Assembly (NCBI GenBank): GCA_050251055.1
Contig: JBFWNL010000005.1
Location: 226,451 to 290,450 of the forward strand
From: Bacteriovoracia bacterium
Lineage (GTDB): Bacteria; Bdellovibrionota; UBA1018; JBFWNL01
Direction: 5' to 3'
Length of the DNA stretch: 64,000 bases
Below are positions 14,029-60,783 of this stretch, in pieces. The notes under the pieces were generated by a model, which was not told the origin of the DNA, searched no databases, and saw only the letters and a list, made by a program, of their open reading frames with translations. How positions within the stretch are numbered: the stretch's first letter is position 1; the number at the start of each line of letters is the position of its first letter. The position numbers and the translations under genes are program-made.

Positions 14029-14257
14029 CGCTTTTCTCCTTGTTTGGCGTCTGTGTGTAACGGCCAAGCCCAGTGCGACCAAAAATCTGCAACACTCGGC
14101 TGCGGATAAAGGGCCACGAATCGGTATGACCGTAAGCTGATTGCAAATTGTTAAGGAGATTTCGGCGAGCGTAGTCGATGAAGTCTTCGAGTGATTGACC
14201 TTTGTACTGTTCGTCCATTCCAAAATCTCCGGTGTCCGTAAAACTCGGATGGACCAT
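13988..14257 (-). CDS. Small hypothetical protein (probably starts at MDEQYK)
   Basis: GGAG RBS before the internal ATG; fills the gap upstream of the revised parB start. Confidence 0.5.
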   Translation of the reverse strand: MVHPSFTDTGDFGMDEQYKGQSLEDFIDYARRNLLNNLQSAYGHTDSWPFIRSRVLQIFGRTGLGRYTQTPNKEKSDVTEKYENQNQPD

Positions 14258-29733: not shown

Positions 29734-29737
29734 AGGT

Positions 29738-30646
29738 TTATGATCCGCTTTCTTGGAAGAGGATGAGGATCGGAGTGCCGGCACTTACTTCGATGATTGG
29801 CGTTTTATTTTTCAGGCCAGACATGATTTCTTGCGACTGCTCTATTGAGGCGCGGCTTGCGCCATTGAGTAGCGCATTTTTTACGCTGGCCTTCTTCACC
29901 AAGACTCCTTGTTGGCCCTCGGTATCTTGAAGAGCCTCAGAGAATCCGCTAAAGAAGTTAAGGCCTACGCCTGCGGCTAACTTAAGTGCGTATTGTCCGA
30001 GTTTGGAGCCGTGAAGGCCGGCCACTTGGTCTTCTGAATCAACGGCTTCAGCTTGAACGTCGGTGAAAGAGCCGTCTTTAAAGATCAGCTTATAGAAGCG
30101 GATGAAGAGTCTTTCTTCGGTTGAGCTTCCCGAGCCCAGAAGGACCGCGCCTTCTTCAGCAAAAGTCTCTCCTCCAACAATCAAGGGCTCTTTAAGTCGG
30201 GCTTTTACTGGGCCGTTTGAGCCTCCCGTAATGAGTTCGCTTTTTACCAAGGCACCAGGTGGTATTTTGATGTTTCTTGGACGAGCAACAAGCTGTGGAC
30301 CGGGCAGTTTGTCGGGCATTCGGGATCTTGGGCCAGCTCTCTGCTTTTCCAATTGTCCTTGGGCGTCTTGGACACGAGAATAGGTACCAAGCTCGATAGC
30401 ATCGCTCGGAACAATCTGTTCCGGAGCTTGAAATGTCCCAGGAGAGCCCCCAGAAGAACTGGAGCTATCATTTGGATTTCCTTTAATAAGGATCGCTAAG
30501 ATCCCAATTCCCAGAGCTCCTAAGGCTGACCAAGCTTTCCAACCGGTTTTTTTTGAAGACTGGGTTCTATATAGGTTTCCTGAACCAAATTGACCTTTAA
30601 TGGTCGGCAAGGAAACAGCCTCAACTGTTGGTTTTTCATCTTCCAC
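29738..30646 (-). CDS. VirB10/TrbI-like T4SS protein (start revised)
   Basis: Single TM, low-complexity linker, IPPG..V...L, AGLHG, IEVSAGTPI.I.F. Confidence 0.75.
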   Translation of the reverse strand: MEDEKPTVEAVSLPTIKGQFGSGNLYRTQSSKKTGWKAWSALGALGIGILAILIKGNPNDSSSSSGGSPGTFQAPEQIVPSDAIELGTYSRVQDAQGQLEKQRAGPRSRMPDKLPGPQLVARPRNIKIPPGALVKSELITGGSNGPVKARLKEPLIVGGETFAEEGAVLLGSGSSTEERLFIRFYKLIFKDGSFTDVQAEAVDSEDQVAGLHGSKLGQYALKLAAGVGLNFFSGFSEALQDTEGQQGVLVKKASVKNALLNGASRASIEQSQEIMSGLKNKTPIIEVSAGTPILILFQESGS

Positions 30647-31058
30647 GAGATTGTCCTTTCTTTTGGGTGGGACGCGGAGCATCCCGCACAAGAATGATCG
30701 CGCTCCCCTCAGTAGGAGTCGCAATGAGATCGAAGCTGAACCGCCTTCCTAAGAGGTAGACGAAAAGGTTTGATCTGGACGCCGAACTTAACGGGGAAAT
30801 TGCGAGATCGTTTTCCACGTATTCCAAACCAAAGGAGCCACTTTTACCCAAAATTACCTTGGTGGGCTTGATGGGAAAGCTAAGAACGGTACCACGTGTA
30901 GAGACTGCAACACGCGCGACTTTCTCGTCATCTAAGGCCACAATTTTTACGTCTGCCGCAAAGACGCGATGAGAGAAAAAGACGCAGAGGAAAAGACTGA
31001 TCACAATTAAGAAAAAGAAATCTAAATCGGGACCTCGGTATTTATTTCTTTCGTTCAT
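30636..31058 (-). CDS. VirB9-like secreted T4SS component (short)
   Basis: Signal peptide, TVLSFP...VILG, SNLFVY...RFSFDL; between VirB8- and VirB10-like genes. Confidence 0.6.
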   Translation of the reverse strand: MNERNKYRGPDLDFFFLIVISLFLCVFFSHRVFAADVKIVALDDEKVARVAVSTRGTVLSFPIKPTKVILGKSGSFGLEYVENDLAISPLSSASRSNLFVYLLGRRFSFDLIATPTEGSAIILVRDAPRPTQKKGQSRGR

Positions 31059-31593
31059 TTGAATCTCCTTCCTTCGAAGTCGGACTGACTTTGGTCAAAA
31101 TGAGCCCGTAAGGATTGCTGGTAGTCCTAGTGACCGAAGAAACAGAGACCTGAAGTGGGAATGAGAACGCCGAACGGATGCTACCGACAGTGATCAAGCG
31201 GTCGGAATCGACAGATACGACTGAACCATTTTGGGTGATTGCATTGATGACGATACGCTGGCGCATCTCGCGGCGCTTGAACTCAGATTGCTCTTGTTCC
31301 CGATTCTTCATTTCATCAAGCGAGAGGTACTCGCTTAGAGCATTTGATTCGGTGTTGAATCGTTGGCTTAGTGCTTCACGAATGAACGATTCGATTTCGC
31401 TAGGTGTCCTAGCCTCCGTCCCCGAAACAATGACTGTCGAATAACATGAACGTTCGATGAGAAGCGGGTCCTTAAGAGCCGCTTTGATGGCGACAATCGA
31501 CAAAGCAGTGAACGCGATCGAGAGAGCGAGCAGTGCCGTTCGCAATGTCACATTTTGCGAAGACACCTTGGCCCATGCTTGTGAAAACCTCAT
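31042..31593 (-). CDS. VirB8/TraE-like T4SS protein
   Basis: Single N-terminal TM and C-terminal RTTSNPYGL.L motif. Confidence 0.7.
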   Translation of the reverse strand: MRFSQAWAKVSSQNVTLRTALLALSIAFTALSIVAIKAALKDPLLIERSCYSTVIVSGTEARTPSEIESFIREALSQRFNTESNALSEYLSLDEMKNREQEQSEFKRREMRQRIVINAITQNGSVVSVDSDRLITVGSIRSAFSFPLQVSVSSVTRTTSNPYGLILTKVSPTSKEGDSNERKK

Positions 31594-31627
31594 AAGAATA
31601 CCTCCTGGCTTGCAAACGATGCCGAAA

Positions 31628-32626
31628 TTAAGATTTTGGCGACGTTTTATCGGTCTGATTAGTCTGAGATTGAGCTTGGTAACGTTTCGTTATTCGGTGA
31701 AACGCTTGAGCTTTTTTGTGATCTCGATCAAGTTGCTCTTGATCCGATAATTTTTTCTTATTCGTGTCCTGAAAGTAATTTTCTTTGAGCTGACTGTATC
31801 CGGAACCTACGGCCTCACTCCCAGTAGAAGCACCCTTTTTGACCGTGGCCGTTGCAAGCTTGCCTGGATTAAAAAGAGCGGCACCAGCCGCCATGCCCAT
31901 CATGGATGAAGCCATAGACGCCATTCCTTTTGAGGTAAGTGCCGTCACAACGATGGGAGTAAAAAGCAGCGAAGCCGCGAGGATTAGATTGTACGCAATG
32001 ACCGTTAAGAAGTTGATGTTGTGCTCTGGTTTATTCATTTCACCCAGCGCCGAGCTCCACAGGAGAGCCGCAAGCACCGCCCAAACAATTTTCCATGCAC
32101 AAACTTCAAACAACGATCGGTAAAGAGCCTTAGTAGCAACAGCGGTGGAGGGCAAAATAAAAAGGGCGATTAGAATCGGAGAAAAAATAAAAAGAAGAAC
32201 CCAAACAAAAATCACTCCGGCATTGGCAATGTAGACCGAAATATAAAGGAGGAAGAATGTGATGAAGGAAAAGCCCAGCATCAAGGTTTCTTTCACGGAA
32301 GTCCAAGAGAACGTAAATTCACTAAGCTTGTCTCCCATCTTGTCGAGAACGAGATGGAAGTCATTATAGTTTCCAATCTGAGAAACGAGTGCGTCTGTTA
32401 CGTCACTCAGGGAATTGGTAACCTCGGGGTAGCTATTGAGAAGAATTGCGGCAACCAGCGTGCGTCCAATAAGTTGCGGAATCCACGGGACACCACCCAG
32501 CGGTAGTTTAAAGTATTCAATCACCACTCCTAGGACCAAAAGCAGAGATGCTAGTCCGTAAAACATGCCGTTGAAGATCGCGTGAATCTGTTTTGCTTCT
32601 TGTGCTAGCCAGTTTAAGTCTGTCAT
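31628..32626 (-). CDS. VirB6/TrbL-like inner-membrane protein
   Basis: Polytopic (FSPILIALFILPST), Ala/Gly-rich tail. Confidence 0.75.
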   Translation of the reverse strand: MTDLNWLAQEAKQIHAIFNGMFYGLASLLLVLGVVIEYFKLPLGGVPWIPQLIGRTLVAAILLNSYPEVTNSLSDVTDALVSQIGNYNDFHLVLDKMGDKLSEFTFSWTSVKETLMLGFSFITFFLLYISVYIANAGVIFVWVLLFIFSPILIALFILPSTAVATKALYRSLFEVCAWKIVWAVLAALLWSSALGEMNKPEHNINFLTVIAYNLILAASLLFTPIVVTALTSKGMASMASSMMGMAAGAALFNPGKLATATVKKGASTGSEAVGSGYSQLKENYFQDTNKKKLSDQEQLDRDHKKAQAFHRITKRYQAQSQTNQTDKTSPKS

Positions 32627-32629
32627 TGG

Positions 32630-33322
32630 TTAAAACCTCGGGAGCTGAAATGAAGTGTCTTGTTGTTTCATCGCGATACTGAGAGCGTTGGAGGTCTCAA
32701 GAGCATTTCGCGTTTGCTCTTTATCTTTCCTGTTCTCAATTGCGAGCGACTGCGCCTGTATCTTAAGCCCCGTCGCTTGTGCGCGAAGACTTTGGTTCAT
32801 AACGGTCAACATCACTCCCAAGGACTGAGCTGTGAGCTTCTGAGCACCGCCAGGAGAAACAAGCCTGCTCATCTGCTTGATGCTTTCGCCAATTTCGTCG
32901 ACATCTCGGGTGTACTTATAAATGGAGTTATTGAGTGCGACGGCTTCTGCAACACTTTGATCTGAGTCGTGTTGAACCTGGGCATCTCTTGATGGCACAA
33001 TCACTCCATAAATACGCTCCAAAGCTCGCACCGCTTCCTGTACTCGCTCCCAGTCCCGGTAAATACCCGGATCCGTCCCTGGCCCAATCGTCCTCATGAG
33101 GTTTAAAGAGTCGTTGATCCCTCGGTTGATGTCCCGAATGAGGGAGAGGGTGTCCTGACCGGTTCCCATAATTGATCTGAGCTGGGCCAACTGCTGAATT
33201 GCGTTTGCAAGAATCTGTGTGAGCACCGCAACATCGCCACCGAAAAGATCCGCTTTTGCTTGGTGAATGGGAGAAAGCAGGAAAGTAACAGCGAGGATAA
33301 ATGTGGAAATCTTTTTCTTCAT
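32630..33322 (-). CDS. VirB5/TrbJ-like protein
   Basis: Signal peptide (AKA|DLFGGD), Gln-rich helices, position after VirB4. Confidence 0.6.
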   Translation of the reverse strand: MKKKISTFILAVTFLLSPIHQAKADLFGGDVAVLTQILANAIQQLAQLRSIMGTGQDTLSLIRDINRGINDSLNLMRTIGPGTDPGIYRDWERVQEAVRALERIYGVIVPSRDAQVQHDSDQSVAEAVALNNSIYKYTRDVDEIGESIKQMSRLVSPGGAQKLTAQSLGVMLTVMNQSLRAQATGLKIQAQSLAIENRKDKEQTRNALETSNALSIAMKQQDTSFQLPRF

Positions 33323-35736
33323 GAACTCTCCTTTTCTGAAGCCGCGACTCCGCGGGGGAATAGTTCGGCTAGTTTTTTCAGCCGATCGACATGCGAAAGA
33401 GACGGATGGGAAGAAGTATGCTCATCAAGTGCAGCAAGATCTTTTGGGTCTGTGGTGGCAATCCAGTATTCAAGGGGCGTAGATTCAATGACGGCGACCG
33501 TCCGATTTGCCTGAGCCAAGAGGAATGCTTCGGAGTAACGCCCTTTGTCTTGTCTCAAAGACTTCACCAAAGAAATCTCGTTGGGGTTTAGGTTCAACAC
33601 CTCTTCTAATCGTTTTCCGTCGACCTGTTGCTGAAGGAGAAGCCACTTAATTGAACAGTTAGGAAGAATGGCTCCAGCGATCTTCGACTTCGCGAAGTCA
33701 TCCAGATCCTGAGAAATCGCGATTGCCGAGGCGTAGTATTTTCTAAAAGTTCGAAAAACCTCTTCGATGAATACAAGGCCAGAATCATTCTTCAGAAGTT
33801 TCCAGCACTCATCAAAAACCAGAAATTTCATTTTTCCGCGATCCCTTTGAATTTCGCGCCAAACGAAGTCTGTGATCATAAACAGGCAAACCGCTTGCAG
33901 ATCTGGAAACGATTCCATGCCCTTTAAGTCAAAAGCCACAATGGGGCGGTTCAGCTCGATGTTTGTTTCACGATCCAAGAACTGACCAAACGGCGTGTTT
34001 CCGCACCACGGCGACAGAATCCGCCCATAACGCTTCACCTCAACGTCGGGATGAGCGAGAAGTAAATCCTGTAGATCGCTGAGCCTAGGAGTTCGCGATT
34101 TTTCGTAAACGCGTTGGATTGCCTCTTCAATTTCAGCACGATGGAGTTTTGGAATGCGCGCCTCATGATCCTCTTTGGTCATGAGTTCAATAAGTGAGAC
34201 AAAGAATTTGATTTTCTGACTGGATGGGGCCGATTCACCTGGTCCAAGATCAAAGGGGTTAAGGCAAAGCCCCGCACCGATACCGAGAAGGACATATTGA
34301 CCATCGAGGTTTTCGCAAAGTTTTTTGTAGGACCCTCCTATATCGACGAAGTAGATCTTAGGGGCTTCTTTGAGTGTTTGTAGGAGCAATAAGTTGGTAA
34401 GGAAGCTTTTGCCTGACCCACTGGACCCCGAAATTAACTGATTAAAATTCGTTAGGCCGGGGTCAAACGGATCGAAGCCCAAGAGACTCCCCATTCTTGA
34501 ACGAAGGAGGATACTTGGCTTCGACATGCCCTCCCAGGGGCCATATAGAGGTAGAAGATCTGCCAGGTTAGAAGTCTTTACGGCCTTTGCTCGCTCTTTA
34601 GATCTGGTGTTAGGGATCGCGCATTCCGAAAAGATGTCAAAAGCCGCGATGCTTTCTTCCATTCCCTCGGCACCTGAGAGACTTCGAATGCACATAAGAG
34701 TTTGAGCGACCTTTTCTTCAAGCTCTCCCAGGTTGTTTGACCTCAAAAGGATGTTCAGACTGACACGAAAAACGTTTTCTCCTTGAGCAATCATTTGCTC
34801 TAAGAGGGTTTCTAAGTCCTGAAGTTTTGCTTCACTTTCGATGTCAGAAACACCAGATCGTTTTCCGCGTGCCATCGAAAATGCTAAACGTCTCTGGGTT
34901 TGGAGCTTTTCAAGCTCCTTAGTTTGATTTGGTACATGGACGGTCAAAAACAACCGTGAGTTAAATGGTAAGTCCCTCAACGCAGAGGCCATTCCGGCTA
35001 CCGTTCGATCAGGCAGAGTTTTTAGAGAAATAAGGCGATGGTGAACTTCACCGATTGAGAATCCGCGTTCGTAGACGCCTACGTCGCTGAACAGAAGCGA
35101 AGAGCGAATATCTTCCGGATCATATGTACCTAAAGAAACCGGTCGATCAGGATTCCACTGCTCATAGATAAGCTCCAAAACTCGATTGGTTTCAATACGT
35201 CTTACTTCCAAGCCCAGCGAAGCAATCGACTGAGAGACGTTCTCTCGAAGTTGCTCTAAAAGTTCGACTTCTCGAACCATTCGAGCATCGGCAATCTTTG
35301 GAAAGTTAGCGGGCTTCGACAAAAGCTTCGGTGCATCGACCAATGATCTCGTCAGAGGCTTTCTGACAAGAAGAAGGAGTTCGTGCTTGGGTATGAAGCC
35401 TTCGCCATCGAGAGTTCTAAGTTTTTCGATGCGTGCCCGGGTTAACGCTTGTGCTGCTTCTGTACTGGATTCTTGGATAAGAGATTCATGCACATCTAGA
35501 ACAGATGCGTTTCCACCCTTAATATCCTGGACAAACTGGAGGTCTATCTCAGGAGGAAGCCCGTTTAGAAATTGGGCCACGCCTTGGGTGATGGAATTGA
35601 TTGTTTCATCTGAGATACACGAAATATCGGTTGGCTTGATCTTAAGTGCAAATCCCAGAGATCCATCTTGGAACAAAAGGCAGTCTTGTTCGATGCCCCA
35701 AAGTTCCAGTTCATCTGCAAGTGCTAGAGAATTCAT
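33319..35736 (-). CDS. virB4: VirB4/TraC conjugation ATPase
   Basis: Walker A GSSGSGKS, FVDIGGSY, LNPF, Walker B FDECW, RTFRKY...ISQ. Confidence 0.93.
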   Translation of the reverse strand: MNSLALADELELWGIEQDCLLFQDGSLGFALKIKPTDISCISDETINSITQGVAQFLNGLPPEIDLQFVQDIKGGNASVLDVHESLIQESSTEAAQALTRARIEKLRTLDGEGFIPKHELLLLVRKPLTRSLVDAPKLLSKPANFPKIADARMVREVELLEQLRENVSQSIASLGLEVRRIETNRVLELIYEQWNPDRPVSLGTYDPEDIRSSLLFSDVGVYERGFSIGEVHHRLISLKTLPDRTVAGMASALRDLPFNSRLFLTVHVPNQTKELEKLQTQRRLAFSMARGKRSGVSDIESEAKLQDLETLLEQMIAQGENVFRVSLNILLRSNNLGELEEKVAQTLMCIRSLSGAEGMEESIAAFDIFSECAIPNTRSKERAKAVKTSNLADLLPLYGPWEGMSKPSILLRSRMGSLLGFDPFDPGLTNFNQLISGSSGSGKSFLTNLLLLQTLKEAPKIYFVDIGGSYKKLCENLDGQYVLLGIGAGLCLNPFDLGPGESAPSSQKIKFFVSLIELMTKEDHEARIPKLHRAEIEEAIQRVYEKSRTPRLSDLQDLLLAHPDVEVKRYGRILSPWCGNTPFGQFLDRETNIELNRPIVAFDLKGMESFPDLQAVCLFMITDFVWREIQRDRGKMKFLVFDECWKLLKNDSGLVFIEEVFRTFRKYYASAIAISQDLDDFAKSKIAGAILPNCSIKWLLLQQQVDGKRLEEVLNLNPNEISLVKSLRQDKGRYSEAFLLAQANRTVAVIESTPLEYWIATTDPKDLAALDEHTSSHPSLSHVDRLKKLAELFPRGVAASEKESS

Positions 35737-36059
35737 GAGCGCACATCCTTTCTTTTCAACGAGGGAGGAGTTTCAAACTGAGAGGGTTCTAGAAATGCGC
35801 TGAGGTACTTAGGTCTAAGTTGGTACTTCACCCAATGAACAAGAAAGTTGTCGGGCTTTCCCTTTTTTCCGACTCTTAAAACAATGGCGAGTGCCAAGGT
35901 CGGAAGCCAGACAAGCAACAACTTCATTCCAGTTGATGCGAAAAGAAAATTGAGGACCGATAGCGAGATGAAGATCGCAAGAACATCTGGAATTTCATAA
36001 CCGGCAATCAGTAACTTTTTGTCTAGACACTGGCTTACAGGCGTCGATCTTAGAGACAT
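35733..36059 (-). CDS. VirB3/TraL-like membrane protein
   Basis: Two TM segments, KKGKPDNFLVHW, coupled to virB4. Confidence 0.7.
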   Translation of the reverse strand: MSLRSTPVSQCLDKKLLIAGYEIPDVLAIFISLSVLNFLFASTGMKLLLVWLPTLALAIVLRVGKKGKPDNFLVHWVKYQLRPKYLSAFLEPSQFETPPSLKRKDVRS

Positions 36060-36082
36060 CTATTAAACCTCCGGAAAGCGTG

Positions 36083-36113
36083 CTGGCCCCTGAGGCGATT
36101 CCCCAGGAGCCAG
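36083..36113 (-). terminator. Stem-loop after pilin gene (attenuator/mRNA stabiliser)
   Basis: Minus-strand CTGGCTCCTGGGG-AATCG-CCTCAGGGGCCAG pairs fully using G-U; no U-tail. Confidence 0.65.
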
Positions 36114-36125
36114 TCACAACGATTG

Positions 36126-36416
36126 CTAGTGGATTAGAGATCGAACAAATTCGATAATGCTCGGAGCACCGAAGCCTACAACGGCTCCCATAATGGCAAG
36201 AATCAGGTGTGATCTCGCGTTAGGACTCCCCGTAAAAAAGGAGAACGCGGCAAAAACCAATCCCAAGATCCCAACCAGAGGAAGGATGACGTTGATGAGT
36301 TTCGATTGAACTGCGGCTAAACTAGATTCGACGCTACAAAATCCAAGAGACGGAAAGGCTACAACGCCTGCAACCACTAGGAGCGCAGGCAAATACTTTC
36401 GAATGGGCGCTTTCAT
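36126..36416 (-). CDS. VirB2/TrbC pilin
   Basis: Signal peptide plus two hydrophobic helices ending GAVVGFGAPSII. Confidence 0.8.
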   Translation of the reverse strand: MKAPIRKYLPALLVVAGVVAFPSLGFCSVESSLAAVQSKLINVILPLVGILGLVFAAFSFFTGSPNARSHLILAIMGAVVGFGAPSIIEFVRSLIH

Positions 36417-36511
36417 GAAACGACCTTTCTTGATCCCTATTCTAAGGATCAAAGATTGAGCGTTTTATGTCCTCGTATGAGGAGCGCGTGACTTAGAGAA
36501 CGGGACTAGGT

Positions 36512-36859
36512 CTATCGCTGTGGAAAGAGACTCATGAACACTCGCCCACGGGGAAACCTAAAGCGGATTTCCAAATGGGTTTTTAGGTCCCTAGGGATAA
36601 AACCGGTGCCGACAGGATTCTGGAACTTAACTCCTTCTTCCCCGTCAACTTTCTTTGCGAAAACTGTGTACCGACCTTCATCATCGCGTGTTCGAACGAG
36701 GTAGTAGGTCATACTGTAAAGCGACCATAGCTTCAGCGCATAGTAGGAGGAGCCCTCATCCGTGAGGGCGTGCCCTGCAGGAAACGCTAACGCCAACGTG
36801 CCACCTTGCTTTCGGCCAAAGACGAGTTCGTGTTTTGAAACGATCGGTCTTGGGTTCAT
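36512..36859 (-). CDS. Hypothetical beta-rich protein (start revised)
   Basis: GAGGA RBS before MNPRP; two related halves (PAGHAL.../PVGTGF...). Confidence 0.65.
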   Translation of the reverse strand: MNPRPIVSKHELVFGRKQGGTLALAFPAGHALTDEGSSYYALKLWSLYSMTYYLVRTRDDEGRYTVFAKKVDGEEGVKFQNPVGTGFIPRDLKTHLEIRFRFPRGRVFMSLFPQR

Positions 36860-36896
36860 AATTCCTCTCTCTTTTTTTAAATCTAAAACAAAGTGG

Positions 36897-37073
36897 CTAT
36901 TTGGTTTTTGGTCGCTTTTGCTCGAGACTCTCATTTTGCGAATTCAATTTTTCGATCTGAAGAAGTCGCCAGAGCTTTTCGATGTATTTCTGAACTCTGG
37001 GGTTGCGTTCTTTTTCGGATTTAGAAATGGTTTCGCAAAACTTCTGAAACTCCTTTTCTATTTGGTTCAACAC
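36897..37073 (-). CDS. Small hypothetical protein (58 aa, absent from ORF track)
   Basis: GAGGAG RBS, GTG start, MLNQIEKEFQKFCETISKSEKERNPRVQKYIEKLWRLL... Confidence 0.55.
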   Translation of the reverse strand: MLNQIEKEFQKFCETISKSEKERNPRVQKYIEKLWRLLQIEKLNSQNESLEQKRPKTK

Positions 37074-37221
37074 AATTGCTCCTCATCACGAGTCTTTCAG
37101 CAAAAGGGCGGTAACCCTCTCTGCAGCGACTGCCAGGTTACGATTTGAAACCAACTCACACACCGAAAGCGACCCTAGAAGTGCATAGAAGTCTTCTTTG
37201 AACTTCAGAATCATGAGTTTA

Positions 37222-37824
37222 TTAGTCATGGCGCACATCCTTTTGACGAAGAGGAACCTCAACATAGAAGTAATCCCCCATGACCGGGTCGTTCACGATG
37301 ACACAAAGTACGGCTTCTCCAACTAGAGCCTCCCGCGAGGCGCGACCACTGAGTCCGTTCACGTCGAGTCCGACAACTTTCTTATTGTCTGACCATTCGG
37401 ACCAAATGTTCGTTGCTCTCAAGGCCTGAATGAACTCCCCGTTTTTCAGAGCGATGTAGGGGTAGACGTCAGAGGTTTTTCCCCCGCGGTACTCCTTAGG
37501 TACGTCGAACGACATCGTGACTTGATTAACCATTGGGCCGTAGATAACGATCGCCGGAGCTACGCTAAGGTCGCTTTTGCTAGCCATCGGGACGGCAAGC
37601 CGGTACTTCCTTTTTCCGGTGTCCATTAGGTTCATCGAAAACGAGTGCTCCATGTTTCCGCTTTGGTAGCTCATGTCGATTCGCAGGAGATCTGTCCGAA
37701 CTCCCGTACCTTGGTCCGAATTGGACTGGGTATTGGGTTTCGGCGTGATTCGAGGCTGGATTGGTTCAGGTCCACAAGCAGATACAAGTACCGGGATAAG
37801 AATCATCAAAATCATCTTCTTCAT
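37222..37824 (-). CDS. Lipoprotein, unknown function
   Basis: MKKMILMILIPVLVSAC lipobox, GGAGG RBS. Confidence 0.8.
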   Translation of the reverse strand: MKKMILMILIPVLVSACGPEPIQPRITPKPNTQSNSDQGTGVRTDLLRIDMSYQSGNMEHSFSMNLMDTGKRKYRLAVPMASKSDLSVAPAIVIYGPMVNQVTMSFDVPKEYRGGKTSDVYPYIALKNGEFIQALRATNIWSEWSDNKKVVGLDVNGLSGRASREALVGEAVLCVIVNDPVMGDYFYVEVPLRQKDVRHD

Positions 37825-37838
37825 TTTTTCCTCCGAGG

Positions 37839-37979
37839 TTAGAAACGGTCTGAACGCATGAAACGCTCATGAAAATGGGGCCGTGAAGGCTCTTCATCTT
37901 CGCCTGGTTTTTTCTGTGTACTGGTGCAGCCGGTGAGAACTCCGATTGCTGCTAAGATAACGAATAGGTAGTTTTTCAT
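37839..37979 (-). CDS. Small lipoprotein (46 aa, absent from ORF track)
   Basis: MKNYLFVILAAIGVLTGCTSTQKKPGEDEEPSRPHFHERFMRSDRF*, AAGGAG RBS, LTGC lipobox. Confidence 0.75.
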   Translation of the reverse strand: MKNYLFVILAAIGVLTGCTSTQKKPGEDEEPSRPHFHERFMRSDRF

Positions 37980-37995
37980 TTTGACTCCTTGATTC

Positions 37996-38151
37996 CTAAA
38001 ATCGTTGAATTTGAAACCAATGCTTTTGAAAGTACTGATCTTTCATTTCCCGCAATGCTTGTTCTTGCTCGTAGGCCAATGCGTTTTGCTCTTGGATGAT
38101 TCCAAACACGCGTTTGGCTAGGTAAGAAAAGCCGCTAATGACCTTTTTCAT
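37996..38151 (-). CDS. Small hypothetical protein (51 aa, absent from ORF track)
   Basis: MKKVISGFSYLAKRVFGIIQEQ...; TAATG overlap with upstream gene, GGAGG RBS. Confidence 0.6.
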   Translation of the reverse strand: MKKVISGFSYLAKRVFGIIQEQNALAYEQEQALREMKDQYFQKHWFQIQRF

Positions 38152-38357
38152 TAGGCAACCTCCAATTCCTTAAATAGGTTGGTGCGTTTGAACTCGGGTC
38201 CGAGTTCTCGAAGAACCGTGTCAGGAAACTGGACGTAGTATTCCTCGTTTCCAAATTCCGGGGCGTAGTTGCAAGATGCGCAGTGAGAGTAACTTTTTAA
38301 CCTCTCATACGCATTGTCTCCGCAACGTGGACAGCAGCTCAGACTAATCGGCTTCAC
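38151..38357 (-). CDS. Zn-ribbon small protein, first gene of transfer operon
   Basis: CPRCG...HCASCNY. Confidence 0.7.
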   Translation of the reverse strand: MKPISLSCCPRCGDNAYERLKSYSHCASCNYAPEFGNEEYYVQFPDTVLRELGPEFKRTNLFKELEVA

Positions 38358-38493
38358 TTACTTTCTCTCTTTCCGAGGGAATCAAAACTGGGGATCAGTT
38401 TTGTTCTTCCCTCAATAAGGTAGTTGCAAGAAAGTGAGGTGTTTGTGCCAGGTGCCGCTAAGGGTTCGAATCAAATTGAAGTTTTGAAATTCT

Positions 38494-38635
38494 CGCGCAA
38501 AAAATGCGGAAAATGTTCAGGCAAAAATGCGCGAGATGTTGCGCACGTAAAACACTAAGTGACTATGATCATTGATGACTTTAAAAATTTTCATGTGCGC
38601 AGATTTCTGCGCACTTGCGCACCAAAAGTTGCGCA
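38494..38635. promoter_or_regulatory. Cluster of TGCGCA palindromes (candidate enhancer sites)
   Basis: GTGCGCAGA-TT-TCTGCGCAC 38595-38614; TGCGCG-N6-TGCGCA 38528-38545; further TGCGCA at 38616 and 38630. Confidence 0.7.
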
Positions 38636-38656
38636 TTTTTGCGAATCGAAGAATAG

Positions 38657-38702
38657 TAAAAAGAAAAGAAAAACCCGCAATGGATCCAGTCCATCACGGG
38701 TT
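38657..38702 (-). terminator. Intrinsic terminator of signalling operon
   Basis: Minus-strand AACCCGTGATGGA-CTGGA-TCCATTGCGGGTT followed by TTTCTTTTCTTTTT. Confidence 0.85.
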
Positions 38703-38730
38703 AAGCGTATGAATAGAAGTTTTTGTTTAA

Positions 38731-40086
38731 CTAAGCTTCAAGGCGACCCAAAACCGCGCGTAAGGTACTTTCTTTCATTCCCAAACGGGCTGCTGCCTGC
38801 CTTTGAGATCCCGCGGTTTTTACTGTGCTAAGAATGAAAGCTTCTTTTTCAGCACGATGACGGGCATCTAGATCGGCCAGGGTGGAAGGCGGATTGATCT
38901 GAAGATCAATATCTCGAAATCTTTGATCTAGTTCAGAAGGACCAATAATTGAATCTGATGAGTTCACTGCCAACTGGCTAACACAGCCTTCAAGCTCACC
39001 AACATTGCCAGGCCAAGGATAGCTTTCGAGTATTCGAATTGCCTTAACTCGAAACGATTTTCTCTTTCCGGTCTCCTTTAAAAACCGTTGGCAGAAATGT
39101 TCGACAAGCAAACCAATGTCTTCCGGACGTTCTCGAAGAGGTGGAACGTCAATGGTCAGAAATTTCAGTCGGTAATATAGGTCTGGCAAAAACGTGCCAT
39201 TTTCTAAACGATCAATCAAATCAGGCTTAGACGCCGCAATGATACGGCAAGAAATATTCGTTTCAACTGTAGCTCCAACTCTTCGGATTTTCTTTTCTCG
39301 AATCGCTCTGAGAAGCGCGGCCTGAGCCTTAAGACTTAAGTGATGGACTTCGTCGAGAAACACGGTGCCGGTCCCGGCCATCTCCAAGATACCAACTTTT
39401 CTGTTCGCTGCTCCTGTGAAAGCACCTTTTTCGTAGCCGAAAAGTTCTGATTCGACCAAATTTCCATCTGCGAATGCCGCGCAATTTACAGAGAAGAGCT
39501 GTTCCTTAGGTCCTCCGTGAATTGCTTTTGCTACCAACTCTTTTCCAGATCCGGTTTCGCCCAGAATTAGCACTGGTGCCGAATTTGAACGGTAAGAAAG
39601 GCATTTTTGAGCGACCTCTGCCATCTTCTGAGATTGACCGATCATCCCGACAGACTTGAGCAGCTCCGAGTTATAGGCTTTGTTTACAGTAGCCTTGAAG
39701 AGTTTCAAACTTTCATCGTATCTCTTACACGCTAGCTCTAATGCCGACTTTAAAGTTTCAAGGTCTTCGTCCTTATTGATGAAATCCACGGCGCCGAGCC
39801 TGTACATTTCTTTAAGCGCTTCTCGGGTATTATCGCACGAATATACGATAATAATCGTTTCGGCATTGATTTCGCGCATCTTTGCCGCCGTTATCGCTCC
39901 ATTCATTCGCGGCATTTGATAATCGAGGAGCACAACCGCGAAATCTCCTTCTGCGGCCGCCAATTTTGAAATTCCTTCTTCGCCCGAAGATGCGGTGTCT
40001 ACCCGGTAACCCCATTCTTCAAGTAAGGCCTCAGTGGCCTTCAAGTTAGAGACATCATCATCTACGGTTAAAATTCGGTATTTCAT
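38731..40086 (-). CDS. Sigma54-dependent (NtrC-family) response regulator
   Basis: Receiver LLDYQMP, GETGSGKE, intact GAFTGA, FLDE, DLYYRL, WPGNVGEL, Fis-type HTH. Confidence 0.96.
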   Translation of the reverse strand: MKYRILTVDDDVSNLKATEALLEEWGYRVDTASSGEEGISKLAAAEGDFAVVLLDYQMPRMNGAITAAKMREINAETIIIVYSCDNTREALKEMYRLGAVDFINKDEDLETLKSALELACKRYDESLKLFKATVNKAYNSELLKSVGMIGQSQKMAEVAQKCLSYRSNSAPVLILGETGSGKELVAKAIHGGPKEQLFSVNCAAFADGNLVESELFGYEKGAFTGAANRKVGILEMAGTGTVFLDEVHHLSLKAQAALLRAIREKKIRRVGATVETNISCRIIAASKPDLIDRLENGTFLPDLYYRLKFLTIDVPPLRERPEDIGLLVEHFCQRFLKETGKRKSFRVKAIRILESYPWPGNVGELEGCVSQLAVNSSDSIIGPSELDQRFRDIDLQINPPSTLADLDARHRAEKEAFILSTVKTAGSQRQAAARLGMKESTLRAVLGRLEA

Positions 40087-41522
40087 ACGCTCATTTCCCT
40101 TAAGGATTCTTGGAAACGTGGTTCAGCTTCAGGTTGAAACTGAATTCTAAATTCTGTGCCGACACTAAGCGCGCTATTGACTGCAATGGTAGCTTCGAAA
40201 TCGTCGCACAGTTTTTTTACAATTGTGAGGCCTAGTCCTGTCCCTCTAGCTGGTTTGGTCGTGAATTCGCCGTCGAAGATTTTATTAAGATGCTCTGTAG
40301 GAATGCCAGCACCATTGTCTTTAACTGTAAGGGTGGGATAGCCCTCTAAAGCCGAAACCAAAATTTCAATTCTTCCCGTATTGTTTTCTACGGCATCTAA
40401 GGAATTTCGAACTAAGTTGTCGATGATTCTGTAAAATTGGACCTTTGGAATCTTTGCGAATGCAGAGTTGGTTTCTATAGTGCAAGTAACTTCAATCCCA
40501 CGGACGTGAAAGTCCGGAGTTTTTTTAAGATCGTTAACGAATTCGGCCGCCTCGTGGCTTGGATCGCAACCTTCCAGGAGTACTCCTGAATTATGAAGAC
40601 CCGGTCCGATAACTTGAATCTGTCGAAGGATGTCACCCATTCTTTCCAGCGATCTTTGAGTTAGTTTTAATAGAACTGGATCAGCTAAGCCGGTGCGATT
40701 TGCCCTTGCGGCAAGAACGGTTAGAAACTTGGTTATTTGAGAGTACGGAGTTTTTAGGTCGTGCCCAATTTCTTTGACCATTGTCAGTTGTGTTTTCATT
40801 CGAGCGTCACGGGCCGCAATTTCGGTCAGCCGGGCAATGTCGAGGTGTAACTTGGAAACAGCCTGATCCACGGTCGTCATTTCGGTGAAAGGTACAAGGC
40901 TATTTTGTTGGGGATTAGTGGGAGTCTCTTTTATCCGCTTTGCCCATTTATCCATTGTGTCTTTTATCAAGGACACAGTTCGCTGTTGAGTTGATGAAAG
41001 GCCCAACGCAATAATAGAAAACACTACTCCTAAGAAAACTAAAAAGACGCTTAATAGCGGCCAGTTTTGTGGATTGTTAGTCCTCAGCTCGACATATCCG
41101 AATAAGCTCTCTTTAAGATCATCATTAAAATAAACCGGCTGAAGATAAGTAACGTACCCTGAAATCAAATCCCAACATGGCTTGCCAGGGGTTTTGCACT
41201 TGTTTGGAATATCGACCAAATCATTAGCGTAAATCGTTTTGTAATCGGGATCGCGAACAACCACGTATTCGCCTTCGCTGAGTCCTAAAGTTCGCTTCAT
41301 TTGAAATTGCGCATCGCGAATATTTTTATCTAAGATCATTGGTCTGAAAGCTCGTGCAACTGCTTGTGTAAGAGTTGAAATACGTGTTTCAGCCGAATGC
41401 ATCGAAAGGTAAAAGAAAAACGGAAGCGATACCGCAGCCGTCAGCGCTAAGCCTATCAAAGCCCACTTTTTTGATAAATGTTGCAATGCTGTAGAAAGGC
41501 TTTGCTGAACCGTGGGTTTCAT
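40083..41522 (-). CDS. Sensor histidine kinase
   Basis: Two TM segments flanking a ~110-aa periplasmic domain, HDLKTP H-box, NLVRNS, DNGAGI, GTGLGL. Confidence 0.93.
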
Positions 41523-43009
41523 TTGCCCGCCAATCCCTTGAAGCGGATTTTGGAGAAAGTCACTGATTCGTCGGAAGTTGGTATATCTCTAAAATCGAGT
41601 TCTGGACCCCCAATGGCCAAGGTAGACAGATGGAAGAGCGGAAGGACATGGCCCTTAATCGTTGCGTCGGTCATAATTGAGCGCATCATTTTGAGCCGTT
41701 TACTTGAGTCAGATTCTTTTCTCGCTGCATCCAATCGCGCAACGAACGGCTCATTTCCAGATCTAACAACAGGCGTATCACCTTCGAAGTAGTACGACAT
41801 CGCACCTTCTGGATCAGGATCGGCCATCCCCATAGTGCTGACATAAATGTCGTAATCACCTTTCCTTTTGTGTTCACCCAACTTATCGAGCGTCGTGAAG
41901 ATATATTCAGGCGCAATGCCTAAAGCATCAGTCAGAACGGCTTTGATGTTCTTTTGTAAGATGGGATTCACGCGAGTAGACGCGAGCAAAACTCTCAAAG
42001 GGGTCCGCTTGAATCGTTCAGGCATTGAATTGTTTGAGTTTGGAACTGGTGTAGGAAATGAATCGTCAAATAACTGATAGCCTATCGGGAACACTTGAGC
42101 GGTAGCGGAAAAGCCCGAAAGCCCTTCTGTGAGTTTGGTTCTGTTAATGCTCTTGTATAGATATCGAAATAAGGCCGTTCCATCTGCGGTTACAAAATTC
42201 TTAGATAGTTGAAGAAGAAAAATCTTATCTAAAGGACGAGTCCAAACTTCGTATTTTTTGCTTTTGTATGTCGACAGTAGGTCTCCCGGAATTAAAGAAT
42301 TTACTTCGACGAGATTTGCCCAGCTGTCCTCAAGCATCACTTTTTGCAAATCGAGGGTACCCTCTGGTTTCCGAATAATGATCTCCTCGGGCATTTTGTC
42401 ATTTCCGAAAATCCACTGAGGATTACGTTTTAAAACCAATTCTGCATTCGTGTCTTTGCTTAAGTAGAAAGCACCGGTTGTAGTGGAAAGGTCAACGTTA
42501 CCGTCAGCTTTCACCTTTAAGACGCCGAAGTTGGGTTCCGTAAGTTTTCCGAGAAGATTACTGGCGGACGTCGGTGTGGAGAGATGAAACTCAACTACGG
42601 ATTCGCTTGGAGCAGTTATGTCTTTAACAATATTTATAAGACTGCGCAGATCTTCCGGGTACTTTTTAAATCCTCGCTCGAAACTCTTTTTTACGTCAGC
42701 GGCAGTTAGTTTTGTGCCGTCCGACCATTTCACATCTTTTCGAAGCTTGAATCTGTAAACCTTTTCTGCGACTGCTTCCCACGATTCAGCGAGAGCGCCC
42801 ATGAATTGTTTGTCGTGGTCCCATTGTACGAGCCTCGACGCGAGTCCGTAAGATAGATCCATGTCCGGAATAGTTACAATCTGGACCGGATCCACCGGGT
42901 ACGAATACGACATGTAAGTTCGAACTTGTTTCATAGATCTCTTTTCAATTGCCTCTGCTGCCGAAACAAAAAATTGCACTGTCAGACACGCGAAAACCAA
43001 AAAACGCAT
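41519..43009 (-). CDS. Family-5 (OppA/DppA-like) periplasmic solute-binding protein, orphan
   Basis: Signal peptide, LAESWE...YRFKLRKDVKWSDGTKLTAADVKKSF, TGAFYL...LVLKRNP; no permease/ATPase nearby. Confidence 0.9.
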   Translation of the reverse strand: MRFLVFACLTVQFFVSAAEAIEKRSMKQVRTYMSYSYPVDPVQIVTIPDMDLSYGLASRLVQWDHDKQFMGALAESWEAVAEKVYRFKLRKDVKWSDGTKLTAADVKKSFERGFKKYPEDLRSLINIVKDITAPSESVVEFHLSTPTSASNLLGKLTEPNFGVLKVKADGNVDLSTTTGAFYLSKDTNAELVLKRNPQWIFGNDKMPEEIIIRKPEGTLDLQKVMLEDSWANLVEVNSLIPGDLLSTYKSKKYEVWTRPLDKIFLLQLSKNFVTADGTALFRYLYKSINRTKLTEGLSGFSATAQVFPIGYQLFDDSFPTPVPNSNNSMPERFKRTPLRVLLASTRVNPILQKNIKAVLTDALGIAPEYIFTTLDKLGEHKRKGDYDIYVSTMGMADPDPEGAMSYYFEGDTPVVRSGNEPFVARLDAARKESDSSKRLKMMRSIMTDATIKGHVLPLFHLSTLAIGGPELDFRDIPTSDESVTFSKIRFKGLAGK

Positions 43010-43021
43010 ACAACGCTTTCG

Positions 43022-43059
43022 TAGTAGGCATTTCGAAGGTGAATTCGAGATGCCTACTA
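43022..43059. repeat. 16-bp stem-loop between peptide gene and binding-protein gene
   Basis: TAGTAGGCATTTCGAA-ggtgaa-TTCGAGATGCCTACTA, one mismatch. Confidence 0.8.
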
Positions 43060-43072
43060 TTTCGATTTGGGT

Positions 43073-43216
43073 TTACTTTTCGCAGGTAGCGCCACTACCT
43101 GCTTCACGACTATGTTCTCCAGCCTGCGCGGCGAGCCCGAGAAGTGATTTCGCACCTCCAGAGAACGCAGTGAGTGCCAAAAGAACTGCTACGATTGACT
43201 TCTTGAGGAAAGACAT
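43073..43216 (-). CDS. Putative secreted precursor peptide (47 aa)
   Basis: GAAAGGGG RBS; MSFLKKSIVAVLLALTAFSGGAKSLLGLAAQA|GEHSREAGSGATCEK with Sec-like signal and AQA site; directly after YcaO gene. Confidence 0.75.
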   Translation of the reverse strand: MSFLKKSIVAVLLALTAFSGGAKSLLGLAAQAGEHSREAGSGATCEK

Positions 43217-43238: not shown

Positions 43239-44279
43239 TTATGGGACAAAATGCGGGAGAGAGCACAATGCCCTCCCTCCACAAACTTTTTCTAAATGTT
43301 CAAAGTTGATCCAGCCACGAGAAGCGGCCGCTTCCGCGCTTCCAAAAAATAGATCCTGCACTTCCTTGCTGGCGCAATGTGCGACGAAAAGAGGGCCAAA
43401 CTGGAAGTCAGAAAAAGAGCTTTTCGGCAGCTTGTTCTTCAGTGCTCTGGAGCGTTCATTCCAATTTCTTGATGCTGCTGAGAACAAAATCGAATTTCCA
43501 AACAACCAAGTAGGGAGCTTAGAGTGATATGCGTAGTAGACGGAGTGGCCTTCAGGGGAGCTTGGTTTGTCCAAATCAGGAGGAGAAATAAATCCTTGTT
43601 CAGCAAAATCGGCAATTCTGCAAACTTCGGCCAGCGCTCTTTCAATGGCTCCTCGCAGAGAACTCGATGAAGCTTGGGAGGAAAAAGCAAAACCATCTTT
43701 GTCCTGCAAAATGGTTACAACACTAGGTGCAGTTCCTAATGTTGAAGTCAAAATTCTGAGCTGGTTAAAGCGCGGTGCGAGGCTCAGTTCTTTTGATGCC
43801 CATTCAATTAGGTCTTTCGGTAAGGTGTGGGCGGCTATTTCGAGAAATGGGGTCTGACTGAGCCAATGGAGCAAAATTGAATCCCGCTCCAGTAGTTCCG
43901 TTTGCGCTGCCGCTCGAGCTTTCTGGGGAGTTAGATGCGCGGCCCAGCCGCTGGAAGACCTAAGGTCTGGATTGAGTTTCTTGGCTAATTTGAAAACACA
44001 ACGTTCAACCGCCTCTGAGATACTCTTCTGAAGCGCCAAAAGTTCAAAATCGCTTTCACCGTAACCGGATGCGACCACTTCGCCTTCAGCCTCAATCTTT
44101 GTCATGATCGAGTGCCTATTAAATCTGTAGCCCTGCATGCGTTTAGCGGGGCTAGAGGCAGTGATCTTGAATGTCAGAGGGGACAGACCGGGAAAAGTGA
44201 ATTGAACGCCCTTAAAGAATTCTGTGAGCTTTTGGCTTACGAGCACGGACCGGATGATTTCTATAATGCTCAGGCTCAC
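43239..44279 (-). CDS. Stand-alone YcaO-like enzyme (start revised to GTG 44279)
   Basis: SGYGES...ALQKSISEAVER, SSGWAAH...ELLERDS, AIERALAE ATP/Mg motifs; Pro-containing C-terminus LPHFVP; AAAGGAG RBS. Confidence 0.85.
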   Translation of the reverse strand: MSLSIIEIIRSVLVSQKLTEFFKGVQFTFPGLSPLTFKITASSPAKRMQGYRFNRHSIMTKIEAEGEVVASGYGESDFELLALQKSISEAVERCVFKLAKKLNPDLRSSSGWAAHLTPQKARAAAQTELLERDSILLHWLSQTPFLEIAAHTLPKDLIEWASKELSLAPRFNQLRILTSTLGTAPSVVTILQDKDGFAFSSQASSSSLRGAIERALAEVCRIADFAEQGFISPPDLDKPSSPEGHSVYYAYHSKLPTWLFGNSILFSAASRNWNERSRALKNKLPKSSFSDFQFGPLFVAHCASKEVQDLFFGSAEAAASRGWINFEHLEKVCGGRALCSLPHFVP

Positions 44280-44317: not shown

Positions 44318-44334
44318 AGCAACCCCTGAGCCAA
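44318..44334 (-). promoter_or_regulatory. Sigma54 -24/-12 promoter of the ycaO operon
   Basis: Minus-strand TTGGCTCAGGGGTTGCT, exact GG-N10-GC spacing. Confidence 0.8.
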
Positions 44335-44430: not shown

Positions 44431-44620
44431 AATGCGCAAGTTATTGCGCATTTAGTTCGAGATGATAGGGGCCTGTGGCGAAAAAGCTAAACGCTTCCAA
44501 ATAGATATGCGCAAGATAAAGAGGTGCGCAGGAAACTGCGCACCTCTAGACTGGCATCCTAAAAAAGCTATGGAAAACAAATATTTACCCAACCCACGAC
44601 CATGCGCAAGAAAGTGCGCT
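44431..44620. promoter_or_regulatory. TGCGCA-N6-TGCGCA palindromes (candidate enhancer sites)
   Basis: 44433-44450, 44525-44542 (11-bp perfect arms), 44603-44620 (one mismatch), half-site at 44508; 100-290 bp upstream of the sigma54 promoter. Confidence 0.75.
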
Positions 44621-50664: not shown

Positions 50665-50673
50665 GATAAGGAG

Positions 50674-60781: not shown

Positions 60782-60783
60782 TT

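Follow-up and report, generated by a model that had tools for sequence, protein, structure and literature searches.

In a 64,000-nucleotide stretch of the genome of a Bacteriovoracia bacterium from the phylum Bdellovibrionota (assembly GCA_050251055.1, contig JBFWNL010000005.1, forward-strand positions 226,451 to 290,450; this whole stretch is hereafter called the window), we analyzed a 47-residue open reading frame (ORF) that follows the gene of a YcaO-family enzyme. We propose that the product of this ORF is the precursor of a signaling peptide that is modified by YcaO and then exported, and that this peptide serves as the input of an adjacent circuit of binding protein, histidine kinase and sigma54-dependent regulator and acts as an autoinducer controlling itself and probably conjugation genes. 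Taken as a whole, we give this proposal an even chance of being correct; within it, gene conservation, motifs, promoter, dyads, synteny and fold are observed, and we infer the modification chemistry, the export, the cleavage site, the ligand–receptor binding and the sign of the regulation. The genes concerned are the following, in window positions.

43073..43216 (stop codon included), minus strand, read from 43216 to 43073: precursor peptide gene, 47 aa.
43239..44279, minus strand: standalone YcaO-family enzyme, 346 aa, GTG start at 44279 (assigned by Pfam YcaO, an AlphaFold2 model and fold matches).
41519..43009, minus strand: periplasmic solute-binding protein of family 5 (OppA-like) with its own signal peptide (Pfam SBP_bac_5, 4.6e-29).
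40083..41522, minus strand: membrane histidine kinase (Pfam HATPase_c) with, on a reading of its sequence, about 115 periplasmic residues between two hydrophobic segments.
38731..40086, minus strand: NtrC-type sigma54-dependent response regulator with receiver, AAA+ and helix-turn-helix (HTH) parts (Sigma54_activat 3.9e-53, Response_reg 3.4e-22).

The small ORF is almost certainly a genuine gene. The first-pass annotation of this DNA had quoted a 47-residue sequence with no strand, and positions 43073..43216 of the minus strand encode precisely this sequence. The YcaO gene stops with TAA at 43239, the precursor ATG lies 22 nt further on, and a purine-rich ribosome-binding stretch (GAGGAAGAAAGGGG) stands directly before it. 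As the annotation had warned, the ORF list gives a wrong start, a 69-aa frame from GTG 43282 that overlaps the 3′ end of the YcaO gene; its own choice, ATG 43216, is right because all orthologues begin at this position. The expectation that annotation pipelines would overlook the ORF did not hold, as the 47-aa product is present in the protein collection (P0138) and orthologues have been deposited as "hypothetical protein". Searches of Pfam and NCBIfam found no family for the window peptide, for four peptides of the long group described below or for 13 orthologues.

Homologous YcaO loci were taken from two sources. A class-wide genome search at E ≤ 1e-10 matched 17 of 127 genomes, the window's own included (11 of the 75 high-quality genomes), and a scan of named genome contigs gave 19 loci, 17 labeled as Bdellovibrionota lineages or "Deltaproteobacteria" and the other two as "Lysobacteraceae" and "Pseudomonadota". 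An equivalent small ORF, whose absence after homologous YcaO genes the first-pass annotation had named as decisive against its idea, was present in 23 of 27 loci, well beyond what chance would give. In 22 of the 27, an ORF whose N-terminus is hydrophobic starts 10–29 nt past the YcaO stop, and in one it starts 135 nt past it. The four loci without it (L033–L036) are the weakest, most distant or truncated YcaO matches, and the rest of the cassette is missing there too.

The peptides occur in two forms. In the short form (47–60 aa; 11 aligned, the window peptide included), M-S-x-x-K-K is followed by a hydrophobic run, a small-residue turn (SGG, SGS or STS) and a segment with an invariant Leu; the second half consists of a variable linker, a Gly-rich stretch and [ST]-C placed zero to two residues from the end. 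The invariant Leu is Leu25 in the window peptide, within AKSLLGLA, where the conserved motif reads K-S-L-L-G-L-A. A G-x-[ST]-C site is found in 8 of the 11 short peptides, and the three exceptions end in GGTGGHGA, GTGGTGI and GAPSSG. The long form, a sister group of about 95–115 aa, carries a classical signal with AXA straight behind the hydrophobic h-region (AFA, AHA, ALA or AKA), then a conserved domain of about 65 residues and then an invariant Pro to which [ST]-[CS] is joined. A profile search with the long form returned 66 clusters, all without a name; P-[ST]-[CS] stands inside the last 16 residues in 62 of them (47 PSC, 13 PSS, 2 PTS), and the remaining four keep P-S. Short and long peptides are otherwise unalignable, and the C-terminal Ser/Thr-Cys/Ser site is conserved across both. 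Among close relatives in one short-form lineage, the last ten residues (GIKG[HQ]GG[ST]CE) are kept while the linker drifts, as expected if the C-terminal end is the functional part. Of the earlier description of Ser, Thr and Cys near the C-terminus, the site itself stands as a conserved feature; the Cys is not universal, and the Ser/Thr preceding it is better conserved and is the residue kept universally.

Judging from its sequence, the peptide is very probably exported by Sec. A Sec signal for signal peptidase I (SPase I) was defined by a positive n-region, a hydrophobic h-region of 7–15 residues, a polar c-region and small residues at −3/−1. The window peptide has this layout, with K5/K6, a run from I8 to F18, and then S19-G20-G21 and A30-Q31-A32 (n-region MSFLKK; h-region SIVAVLLALTAF; then the segment S-G-G-AKSLLGLAAQA; core GEHSREAGSGATCEK). 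In the family, an uncharged run lies within the first 40 residues of all 90 distinct members, with K/R ahead of it in 89. The run has a median length of 15.5 and does not exceed 17 residues in 88 of the 90, lengths that, as read from sequence, are typical for Sec signals and short for a membrane anchor. The host genome encodes signal peptidase I at three places. The first-pass annotation had described a Sec-type signal in place of the leader of a peptide that is made by the ribosome and modified after translation (RiPP). The n/h/c layout of a Sec signal supports the first half of this description, and the second half has to be amended, as a conserved, putative recognition segment (residues 21–29) lies behind the signal.

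Two candidate SPase I sites fit the −3/−1 rule: S19-G20-G21 before A22, which would release a 26-mer, and A30-Q31-A32 before G33, the site first proposed, which would release a 15-mer. The S-G-G site has the canonical position, and on a reading of the alignment by eye 9 of 11 orthologues retain its small residues; an AXA-like triplet occurs near the AQA position in most orthologues. By analogy with the long form, we favor the S-G-G cut slightly over AQA, both being plausible, and later trimming is possible. The suggestion that SGG could be an alternative double-glycine cut site was dropped, as orthologues show SGS, STS, TSG or YGN here. A double-glycine leader of the C39 peptidase type was rejected on the same lack of GG conservation and on the lack of a C39-ABC exporter in the locus.

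For the enzyme, an AAGGAG Shine-Dalgarno sequence precedes GTG 44279, a start that agrees with P0002; an alternative GTG lies at 44303. The Pfam YcaO model (PF02624) scores 44.1 bits against a cut-off of 25.7, over residues 114–253 only, which makes the protein a family member, and the NCBIfam model for SagD-type thiazole/oxazole-modified microcins (TOMMs) scores 35.8 against a cut-off of 219, which leaves it outside the SagD-type subfamily. Its AlphaFold2 model has a predicted local distance difference test score (pLDDT) of 94.4 and a predicted template modeling (TM) score of 0.92. Foldseek gave 42 matches at E ≤ 0.001, and those listed, to rank 41, were YcaO enzymes (E 1e-9, TM 0.5–0.59). 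The best of them, 4q86, 6ci7, 6peu, 6gri and 4v1v, share 12–16% identity with it and comprise Escherichia coli YcaO, the YcaO proteins of M. kandleri and M. jannaschii, McbD and LynD; at the sequence level, relatives among solved structures in the PDB were marginal only (E 0.004 and 0.0075). Across 38 YcaO relatives, residues E75, E89, E92, R93, E128, E131, R132, D133, E218, R221 and H343 are invariant and form the motifs E89-x2-E92-R93, E128-x2-E131-R132-D133 and E218-x2-R221, and all 38 sequences end in P-H-x-[VI]-x. The acidic/Arg motifs of YcaO enzymes bind ATP and Mg, and their conserved C-terminal tail reaches the active site; the motifs found here align with the equivalent motifs of MJ1094. 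With its confidently modeled YcaO fold and its invariant Glu/Arg motifs, the enzyme looks active.

The YcaO–peptide complex was predicted from the YcaO alignment, ATP, Mg and the short-form peptide alignment. It scored 0.71 (runs 0.80, 0.71 and 0.61) against 0.48 for the best control, with at least 66% contact agreement between runs and a partner pLDDT of at least 66. In calibration, 116 of 157 solved complexes attained the mark for this score, as did 2 of 215 mismatched pairs, figures that are only roughly valid for a prediction made, like this one, with its own alignments and with ligands along. The contacts predicted with least error join peptide residues 21–29 (G-A-K-S-L-L-G-L-A) to YcaO residues 15–22, 39–43, 58–61 and 79–84 of the N-terminal domain. 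The core, peptide residues 32–47, is modeled against YcaO residues 93, 96–97, 107–110, 221–226 and the C-terminal 346, beside the invariant motifs. The complex model supports binding of the peptide by YcaO. According to it, the stretch that follows the hydrophobic core may serve for recognition in the manner of a leader, in which case the precursor would consist of a signal peptide plus a short leader. We regard the peptide as a likely YcaO substrate.

The same data bear on a different role for the small ORF: its product, exported or anchored in the membrane, would be an accessory protein that modulates the kinase or binding protein, and YcaO would act on something else. Small membrane or periplasmic modulators of histidine kinases are textbook knowledge, with an example in PMC12239555, and the domain of about 65 residues in the long group could fold by itself. 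An accessory protein would leave unexplained, however, why the ORF directly follows ycaO, at 10–29 nt, in 22 loci, and why peptides that cannot otherwise be aligned have a conserved C-terminal Ser/Thr-Cys/Ser site in common. Moreover, binding is supported by the complex model, in which the core sits against conserved YcaO residues, and the uncharged runs do not have the length of a stable anchor. We consider this role improbable.

Returning to the peptide as a YcaO substrate, we found no E1-like or RiPP recognition element (RRE) partner, dehydrogenase or TfuA among the Pfam-scanned genes around the cassette, and these genes likewise include no protease or exporter, in agreement with the first-pass annotation. 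Compared with azol(in)e RiPPs (TOMMs or linear azol(in)e-containing peptides), the locus has a precursor with a Cys/Ser/Thr core beside the putative cyclodehydratase and has neither the E1-like/RRE protein nor the flavin mononucleotide (FMN) dehydrogenase. Because these last two were not found around the cassette, it should not be filed as a classical TOMM. By analogy with what YcaO enzymes do, azoline formation at the Ser/Thr-Cys site would be the expected modification. Modification in the cytoplasm followed by Sec export, the order first suggested, is the most economical reading because it accounts together for the conserved YcaO partner, the Sec layout, the Ser/Thr-Cys site, the lack of a dedicated exporter, the SPase I genes and the complex model. 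With the azoline-forming YcaO systems (microcin B17 McbBCD, the cyanobactin enzymes LynD/TruD and standalone archaeal YcaO), the cassette shares the YcaO fold, the acidic motifs and a Gly-adjacent Ser/Thr/Cys core. It differs from them in its 12–16% identity, in having no E1-like/RRE protein, dehydrogenase, TfuA, ABC exporter or leader protease, and in a precursor that combines a Sec signal with a short recognition motif.

The regulatory side of the cassette and the sites downstream of it are as follows.

44318..44333, minus strand: sigma54-type promoter TGGCTCAGGGGTTGCT, with −24 GG and −12 GC (TGGC-N8-TTGCT).
44433..44619, minus strand: three dyads TGCGCA-N6-TGCGCA (44433–44450, 44525–44542, 44604–44619), 100–300 nt upstream of the promoter.
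38648..38703, minus strand: intrinsic-terminator-like hairpin with T-run after the regulator gene, from a reading of the sequence.
38520..38650, minus strand: second TGCGCA cluster (dyads 38528–38545 and 38596–38613), past the regulator terminator and upstream of the zinc-ribbon ORF, the first in a row of type IV secretion system (T4SS) genes.

The gene order YcaO–peptide–binding protein was found in 14 of 18 loci of the first set and 8 of 11 of the second (one of which is a first-set locus), and the kinase and regulator genes come next wherever the contig continues. The solved chains nearest to the binding protein are OppA-type (E 7e-10), and no ABC permease or ATPase gene stands beside its gene. 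Just ahead of ycaO, 12 of 14 loci have a canonical sigma54 promoter, as do 7 of 8 further loci; of the two promoter-less loci among the 14, one has no upstream sequence and the other no nearby site. As a background, the 3.77-Mb genome holds 1310 sigma54 sites of such score on both strands, about one per 5.7 kb of strand, and it encodes rpoN. Exact TGCGCA dyads number only six in the same genome, two of them before ycaO and one at 38596, and all five dyads found in 19 kb lie within two regulatory regions. On sequence grounds, the dyads are putative upstream activator sites for the sigma54 regulator. A sigma54 promoter with dyads upstream of ycaO and the peptide gene, and a sigma54 activator in the same operon, together would suit a signal gene controlled through its own receptor, as in an autoinducing circuit. 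In our judgment, the chances are slightly better than even that the adjacent binding protein takes the peptide as its ligand and that the peptide thereby drives a self-activating sigma54 circuit.

Other loci have dyads of their own, here too placed both ahead of ycaO and ahead of the T4SS-side gene: locus L021 has GCGCG-N6-CGCGC, locus L028 has ATTCA-N6-TGAAT, L038 has its dyads before ycaO and after the regulator, L029 has TTCAG...CTGAA five times, and L037 has TTCAA...TTGAA. In L021, L028 and L038, as in the window, dyads are common to the upstream regions of ycaO and of the T4SS genes. The class of regulator HTH goes with the class of dyad: "..ES[ST]LR" accompanies GCGC dyads (5 of 5 cases), and "P..L[HQS]Y" accompanies TTCA dyads (7 of 7). 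L021 also carries a third cluster of GCGCG-N6/8-CGCGC downstream of the regulator gene (13931–14102), which hints at a further regulated unit.

The window has a GC content of about 46%, against 58% in the genome; the switch lies at about C5:219.5 kb, 7 kb ahead of the window, and the low-GC island continues to the contig end over at least 71 kb. No tRNA was found at the near island border. Pfam identified TraC/VirB4, TrbI, an FtsK-like coupling ATPase, two tyrosine integrases, a serine recombinase, ParB and cargo genes in the island, and no relaxase was recognised among the Pfam-scanned island genes. With a T4SS, a coupling protein and recombinases, as in an integrative conjugative element, the window is a low-GC, conjugative-element-like island; alternatively, the island may be a chimeric join in a metagenome-assembled genome. 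Its T4SS genes are arranged as follows.

27257..38357, minus strand: co-directional T4SS gene row (Pfam) with the zinc-ribbon ORF (38357 to 38151), small ORFs, lipoproteins and VirB2/B3-like genes.
33319..35736, minus strand: TraC/VirB4 (Pfam).
29738..30724, minus strand: TrbI (Pfam).
28186..29784, minus strand: FtsK-like coupling protein (Pfam).

The ORFs at 38151–38357, 37222–37824 and 36512–36934 have only sub-threshold Pfam/NCBIfam matches. Upstream of the zinc-ribbon gene, a conserved TTGGCAC...TTGCAAT motif was observed in two spacings (window 38420–38455, minus strand). The N15 form is present in five loci (window, L021, L028, L039, L043) and an N3/4 form in five others (L029, L037, L049, L051, L053); neither spacing fits a sigma54 −24/−12 pair, and the N15 form fits a sigma70 −35/−10 pair.

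Control of the T4SS genes by the circuit is a separate part of the proposal, which we place a little below even. Its rival is that the cassette is a genuine peptide signal with no tie to conjugation, a mobile-element cargo that controls only itself or unlinked genes. Only 11 of the 23 cassette loci have homologues of the T4SS module or of its leading zinc-ribbon gene in the flanks that were retrieved, other neighbors stand at L022, L024 and L026, and no canonical sigma54 −24/−12 element was found upstream of the T4SS row at the score used. The flanks of L022 hold plasmid-partition, recombinase and reverse-transcriptase genes, and those of L024 hold restriction- and transposase-associated domains. 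Of the 12 loci with no T4SS in their flanks, however, only four were scanned (L022, L024, L026 and L046, the first three with longer flanks), and the other eight are short contigs or unscanned. The same dyads also stand upstream of the T4SS row in the window, L021 and L028, and the linkage survives rearrangement: the module lies downstream of the regulator in the window, L039 and L028, divergent from ycaO in seven loci (L020, L021, L029, L037, L043, L049, L053) and farther upstream in L051. We consider a signal with no tie to conjugation quite unlikely.

A further alternative is that the peptide is YcaO-modified and Sec-exported but works as an effector, either a small antimicrobial or a bufferin-like metal binder, and that the role of the two-component system is confined to regulating or auto-inducing peptide production, as happens with lantibiotics. 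According to textbook knowledge, YcaO enzymes mostly yield antimicrobial or otherwise bioactive azol(in)e peptides. Several orthologues have frequent His near the core, the best NCBIfam matches of the binding protein include nickel and metallophore binders (far under their cut-offs), and the same island holds a pair of genes of the multinuclear non-heme iron oxidase (MNIO) kind. In addition, the known Sec-signal RiPPs are the copper-binding bufferins and oxazolins (PMC12452194). An effector fits less well with a single short modifiable site, with a His that is not conserved and is missing near the site in the long group, and with the scanned genes, which include no immunity gene, exporter or dehydrogenase. 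Nor would it account for a binding protein that has no transporter partner and whose gene always stands directly before the kinase gene, or for the linkage of the cassette to T4SS modules with dyads common to both. We therefore regard an effector as unlikely.

For a self-controlling exported signal, our preferred reading, the steps would be as follows. The operon would be transcribed from the sigma54 promoter, and the cytoplasmic standalone YcaO would bind AKSLLGLA behind the hydrophobic core and carry out an ATP-driven cyclodehydration of the C-terminal Ser/Thr-Cys, giving one or two azolines. The N-terminal Sec-type signal would then carry the peptide through SecYEG, and signal peptidase I would cut after S-G-G (26-mer) or A-Q-A (15-mer). 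The free peptide would be bound by the orphan OppA-like periplasmic protein, which would change the activity of the histidine kinase. The phosphorylated sigma54 activator would act on the TGCGCA dyads upstream of its own operon, closing a positive feedback, and also on those upstream of the T4SS row in the mobile element on which it is carried.

Beside the limited T4SS linkage and the missing −24/−12 element given above, several observations weigh against this reading. With no dehydrogenase or E1-like/RRE partner, the product would be a labile azoline, or YcaO would catalyze another reaction. As 3 of the 11 short peptides and 19 of the 66 long ones (13 PSS, 2 PTS and 4 motif-less) have no Cys, the modified residue is uncertain. 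The margin of the complex score over the best control was only 0.23, where 0.20 was required, and solved YcaO–peptide complexes exist, so that likeness to them may account for part of the pass. At the AQA position, several orthologues have a poor aligned −3 residue (H, E, D or N), and the match of HTH and dyad classes rests on two clades, which amounts to about one independent event.

Genome G005 holds two complete cassettes (L029 and L037), each beside a T4SS module, and the two differ in peptide cores (…EPSCWTAPF and …GQPSCVGGL), dyads and regulator HTHs. Insulated signaling channels would be expected to show such a pattern. Combining these features, we tentatively suggest a class of Gram-negative pheromone, heterocyclised by YcaO and exported by Sec, whose leader joins a signal with a recognition motif and which is read through an OppA-like protein, a kinase and a sigma54 regulator; conjugative elements of predatory Bdellovibrionota would use it to sense their own density and switch their T4SS. 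As part of this pheromone reading, and equally tentatively, lineage-specific cores, dyads and HTHs may give insulated channels even inside one genome.

The Phr-type pheromones are among the nearest functional parallels. In the ICEBs1 RapI–PhrI and pLS20 Rap–Phr* systems, a Sec pre-pro-peptide encoded on a conjugative element has a C-terminal active part, is handled by an OppA-family binder and controls transfer genes. The proposed system would share the Sec-signal precursor on a conjugative element, the active C-terminus, the OppA-family binding protein and the transfer genes. Phr peptides differ in being unmodified, imported, and recognized by cytoplasmic RRNPP receptors in Firmicutes, whereas the cassette has a YcaO partner, a permease-less binding protein and a membrane kinase leading to a sigma54 activator, in Bdellovibrionota. 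The order of a periplasmic binding protein, a membrane kinase and a sigma54-dependent response regulator is also that of the LuxP–LuxQ–LuxO system for autoinducer-2 (AI-2) in Vibrio. There the ligand is a furanosyl borate instead of a ribosomal peptide, the binding protein here is of family 5 (OppA-like), and no LuxU or hybrid kinase was seen; the regulator reaches 210 bits with the LuxO model, far under its cut-off of 800, and the cassette is not an orthologue. Agr-type and lantibiotic autoinduction resemble the proposal in that a modified ribosomal peptide activates a kinase/regulator pair driving its own operon. The cassette differs from them in having no AgrB-like or LanT-like processing and export, an extra periplasmic binding protein and a sigma54-dependent output.

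Sec signals on RiPP precursors have been documented for the MNIO-modified bufferins and oxazolins and are called "highly unusual" for bacterial RiPPs (PMC12452194). These peptides resemble the one proposed here in their N-terminal Sec-type signal, in cytoplasmic Cys modification and in general export with no dedicated transporter. They differ in the enzyme, MNIO with DUF2063 against a YcaO-type ATP-dependent backbone activator, and in the setting, copper homeostasis genes against a binding protein, kinase and sigma54 regulator; the core here is a single short C-terminal site. In the YcaO and RiPP literature, covered mostly at abstract level, we found no case of a YcaO-modified precursor with a Sec signal. 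Likewise, no description of the cassette was found in the literature on YcaO RiPPs, YcaO in Bdellovibrio, YcaO in quorum sensing, YcaO together with histidine kinases and solute-binding proteins, sigma54, conjugation and peptide quorum sensing, and Bdellovibrionota RiPPs, again mostly at abstract level. The parts are known; their combination and the host phylum are new. To our knowledge, Gram-negative bacteria offer few examples of ribosomal peptide signals with sensing outside the cell, and we know of nothing comparable described for Bdellovibrionota. If the proposal is true, the YcaO case would mean that the Sec-signal precursor strategy arose more than once, beyond MNIO enzymes, that one leader can combine a signal peptide with an enzyme-recognition motif, and that naturally orthogonal sets of peptide, receptor and operator exist. 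If the T4SS is gated by the circuit, the cassette would be a Gram-negative counterpart of Phr/pheromone control of conjugation. With five genes, one promoter and defined operator dyads, it is compact enough to be rebuilt in a laboratory host, with clear predictions.

One further feature lies within the operon.

43021..43060, minus strand: RNA hairpin with an 11-bp stem between the peptide and binding-protein genes (−21.9 kcal/mol, z −5.1).

This hairpin is a possible attenuator or stabiliser. A hairpin after the peptide gene was rejected as a general feature, a comparable one being present in only 4 of 8 loci tested. At L046, an insertion sequence (IS) element (rve integrase core and HTH_21; 2384–3240) lies between the peptide and binding-protein genes and may have disrupted the cassette. 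At L026, a nitroreductase-family gene (Pfam; 9420–10193) follows the regulator, and a similar-looking frame is visible in L028.

Elsewhere in the window, the MNIO pair mentioned above consists of an MbnB/TglH/ChrH-family gene (60745–61617) and a DUF2063 gene (61565–62377), both within 60500–62377 on the plus strand. A Cys-rich small ORF with a signal-like N-terminus and no Pfam match (60500–60781, plus strand) precedes the MNIO gene in a bufferin-like arrangement, so that a second RiPP with a Sec signal, of a kind already known, may reside on the island. At 342–9288 on the minus strand lie a complete kdpABC operon, the two-component genes kdpD/kdpE and the gene of an OmpL-like porin, which are apparent cargo of the island. 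On the plus strand at 49663–51735, a radical S-adenosylmethionine (SAM) protein with DUF3641 is followed by a SAM methyltransferase ending in Cys-Cys, and a fusion of pyridine-nucleotide disulphide oxidoreductase with VTT (47122–49272) and two MarR genes lie near the radical-SAM gene; together these genes form a possible metalloid or redox cargo cluster.

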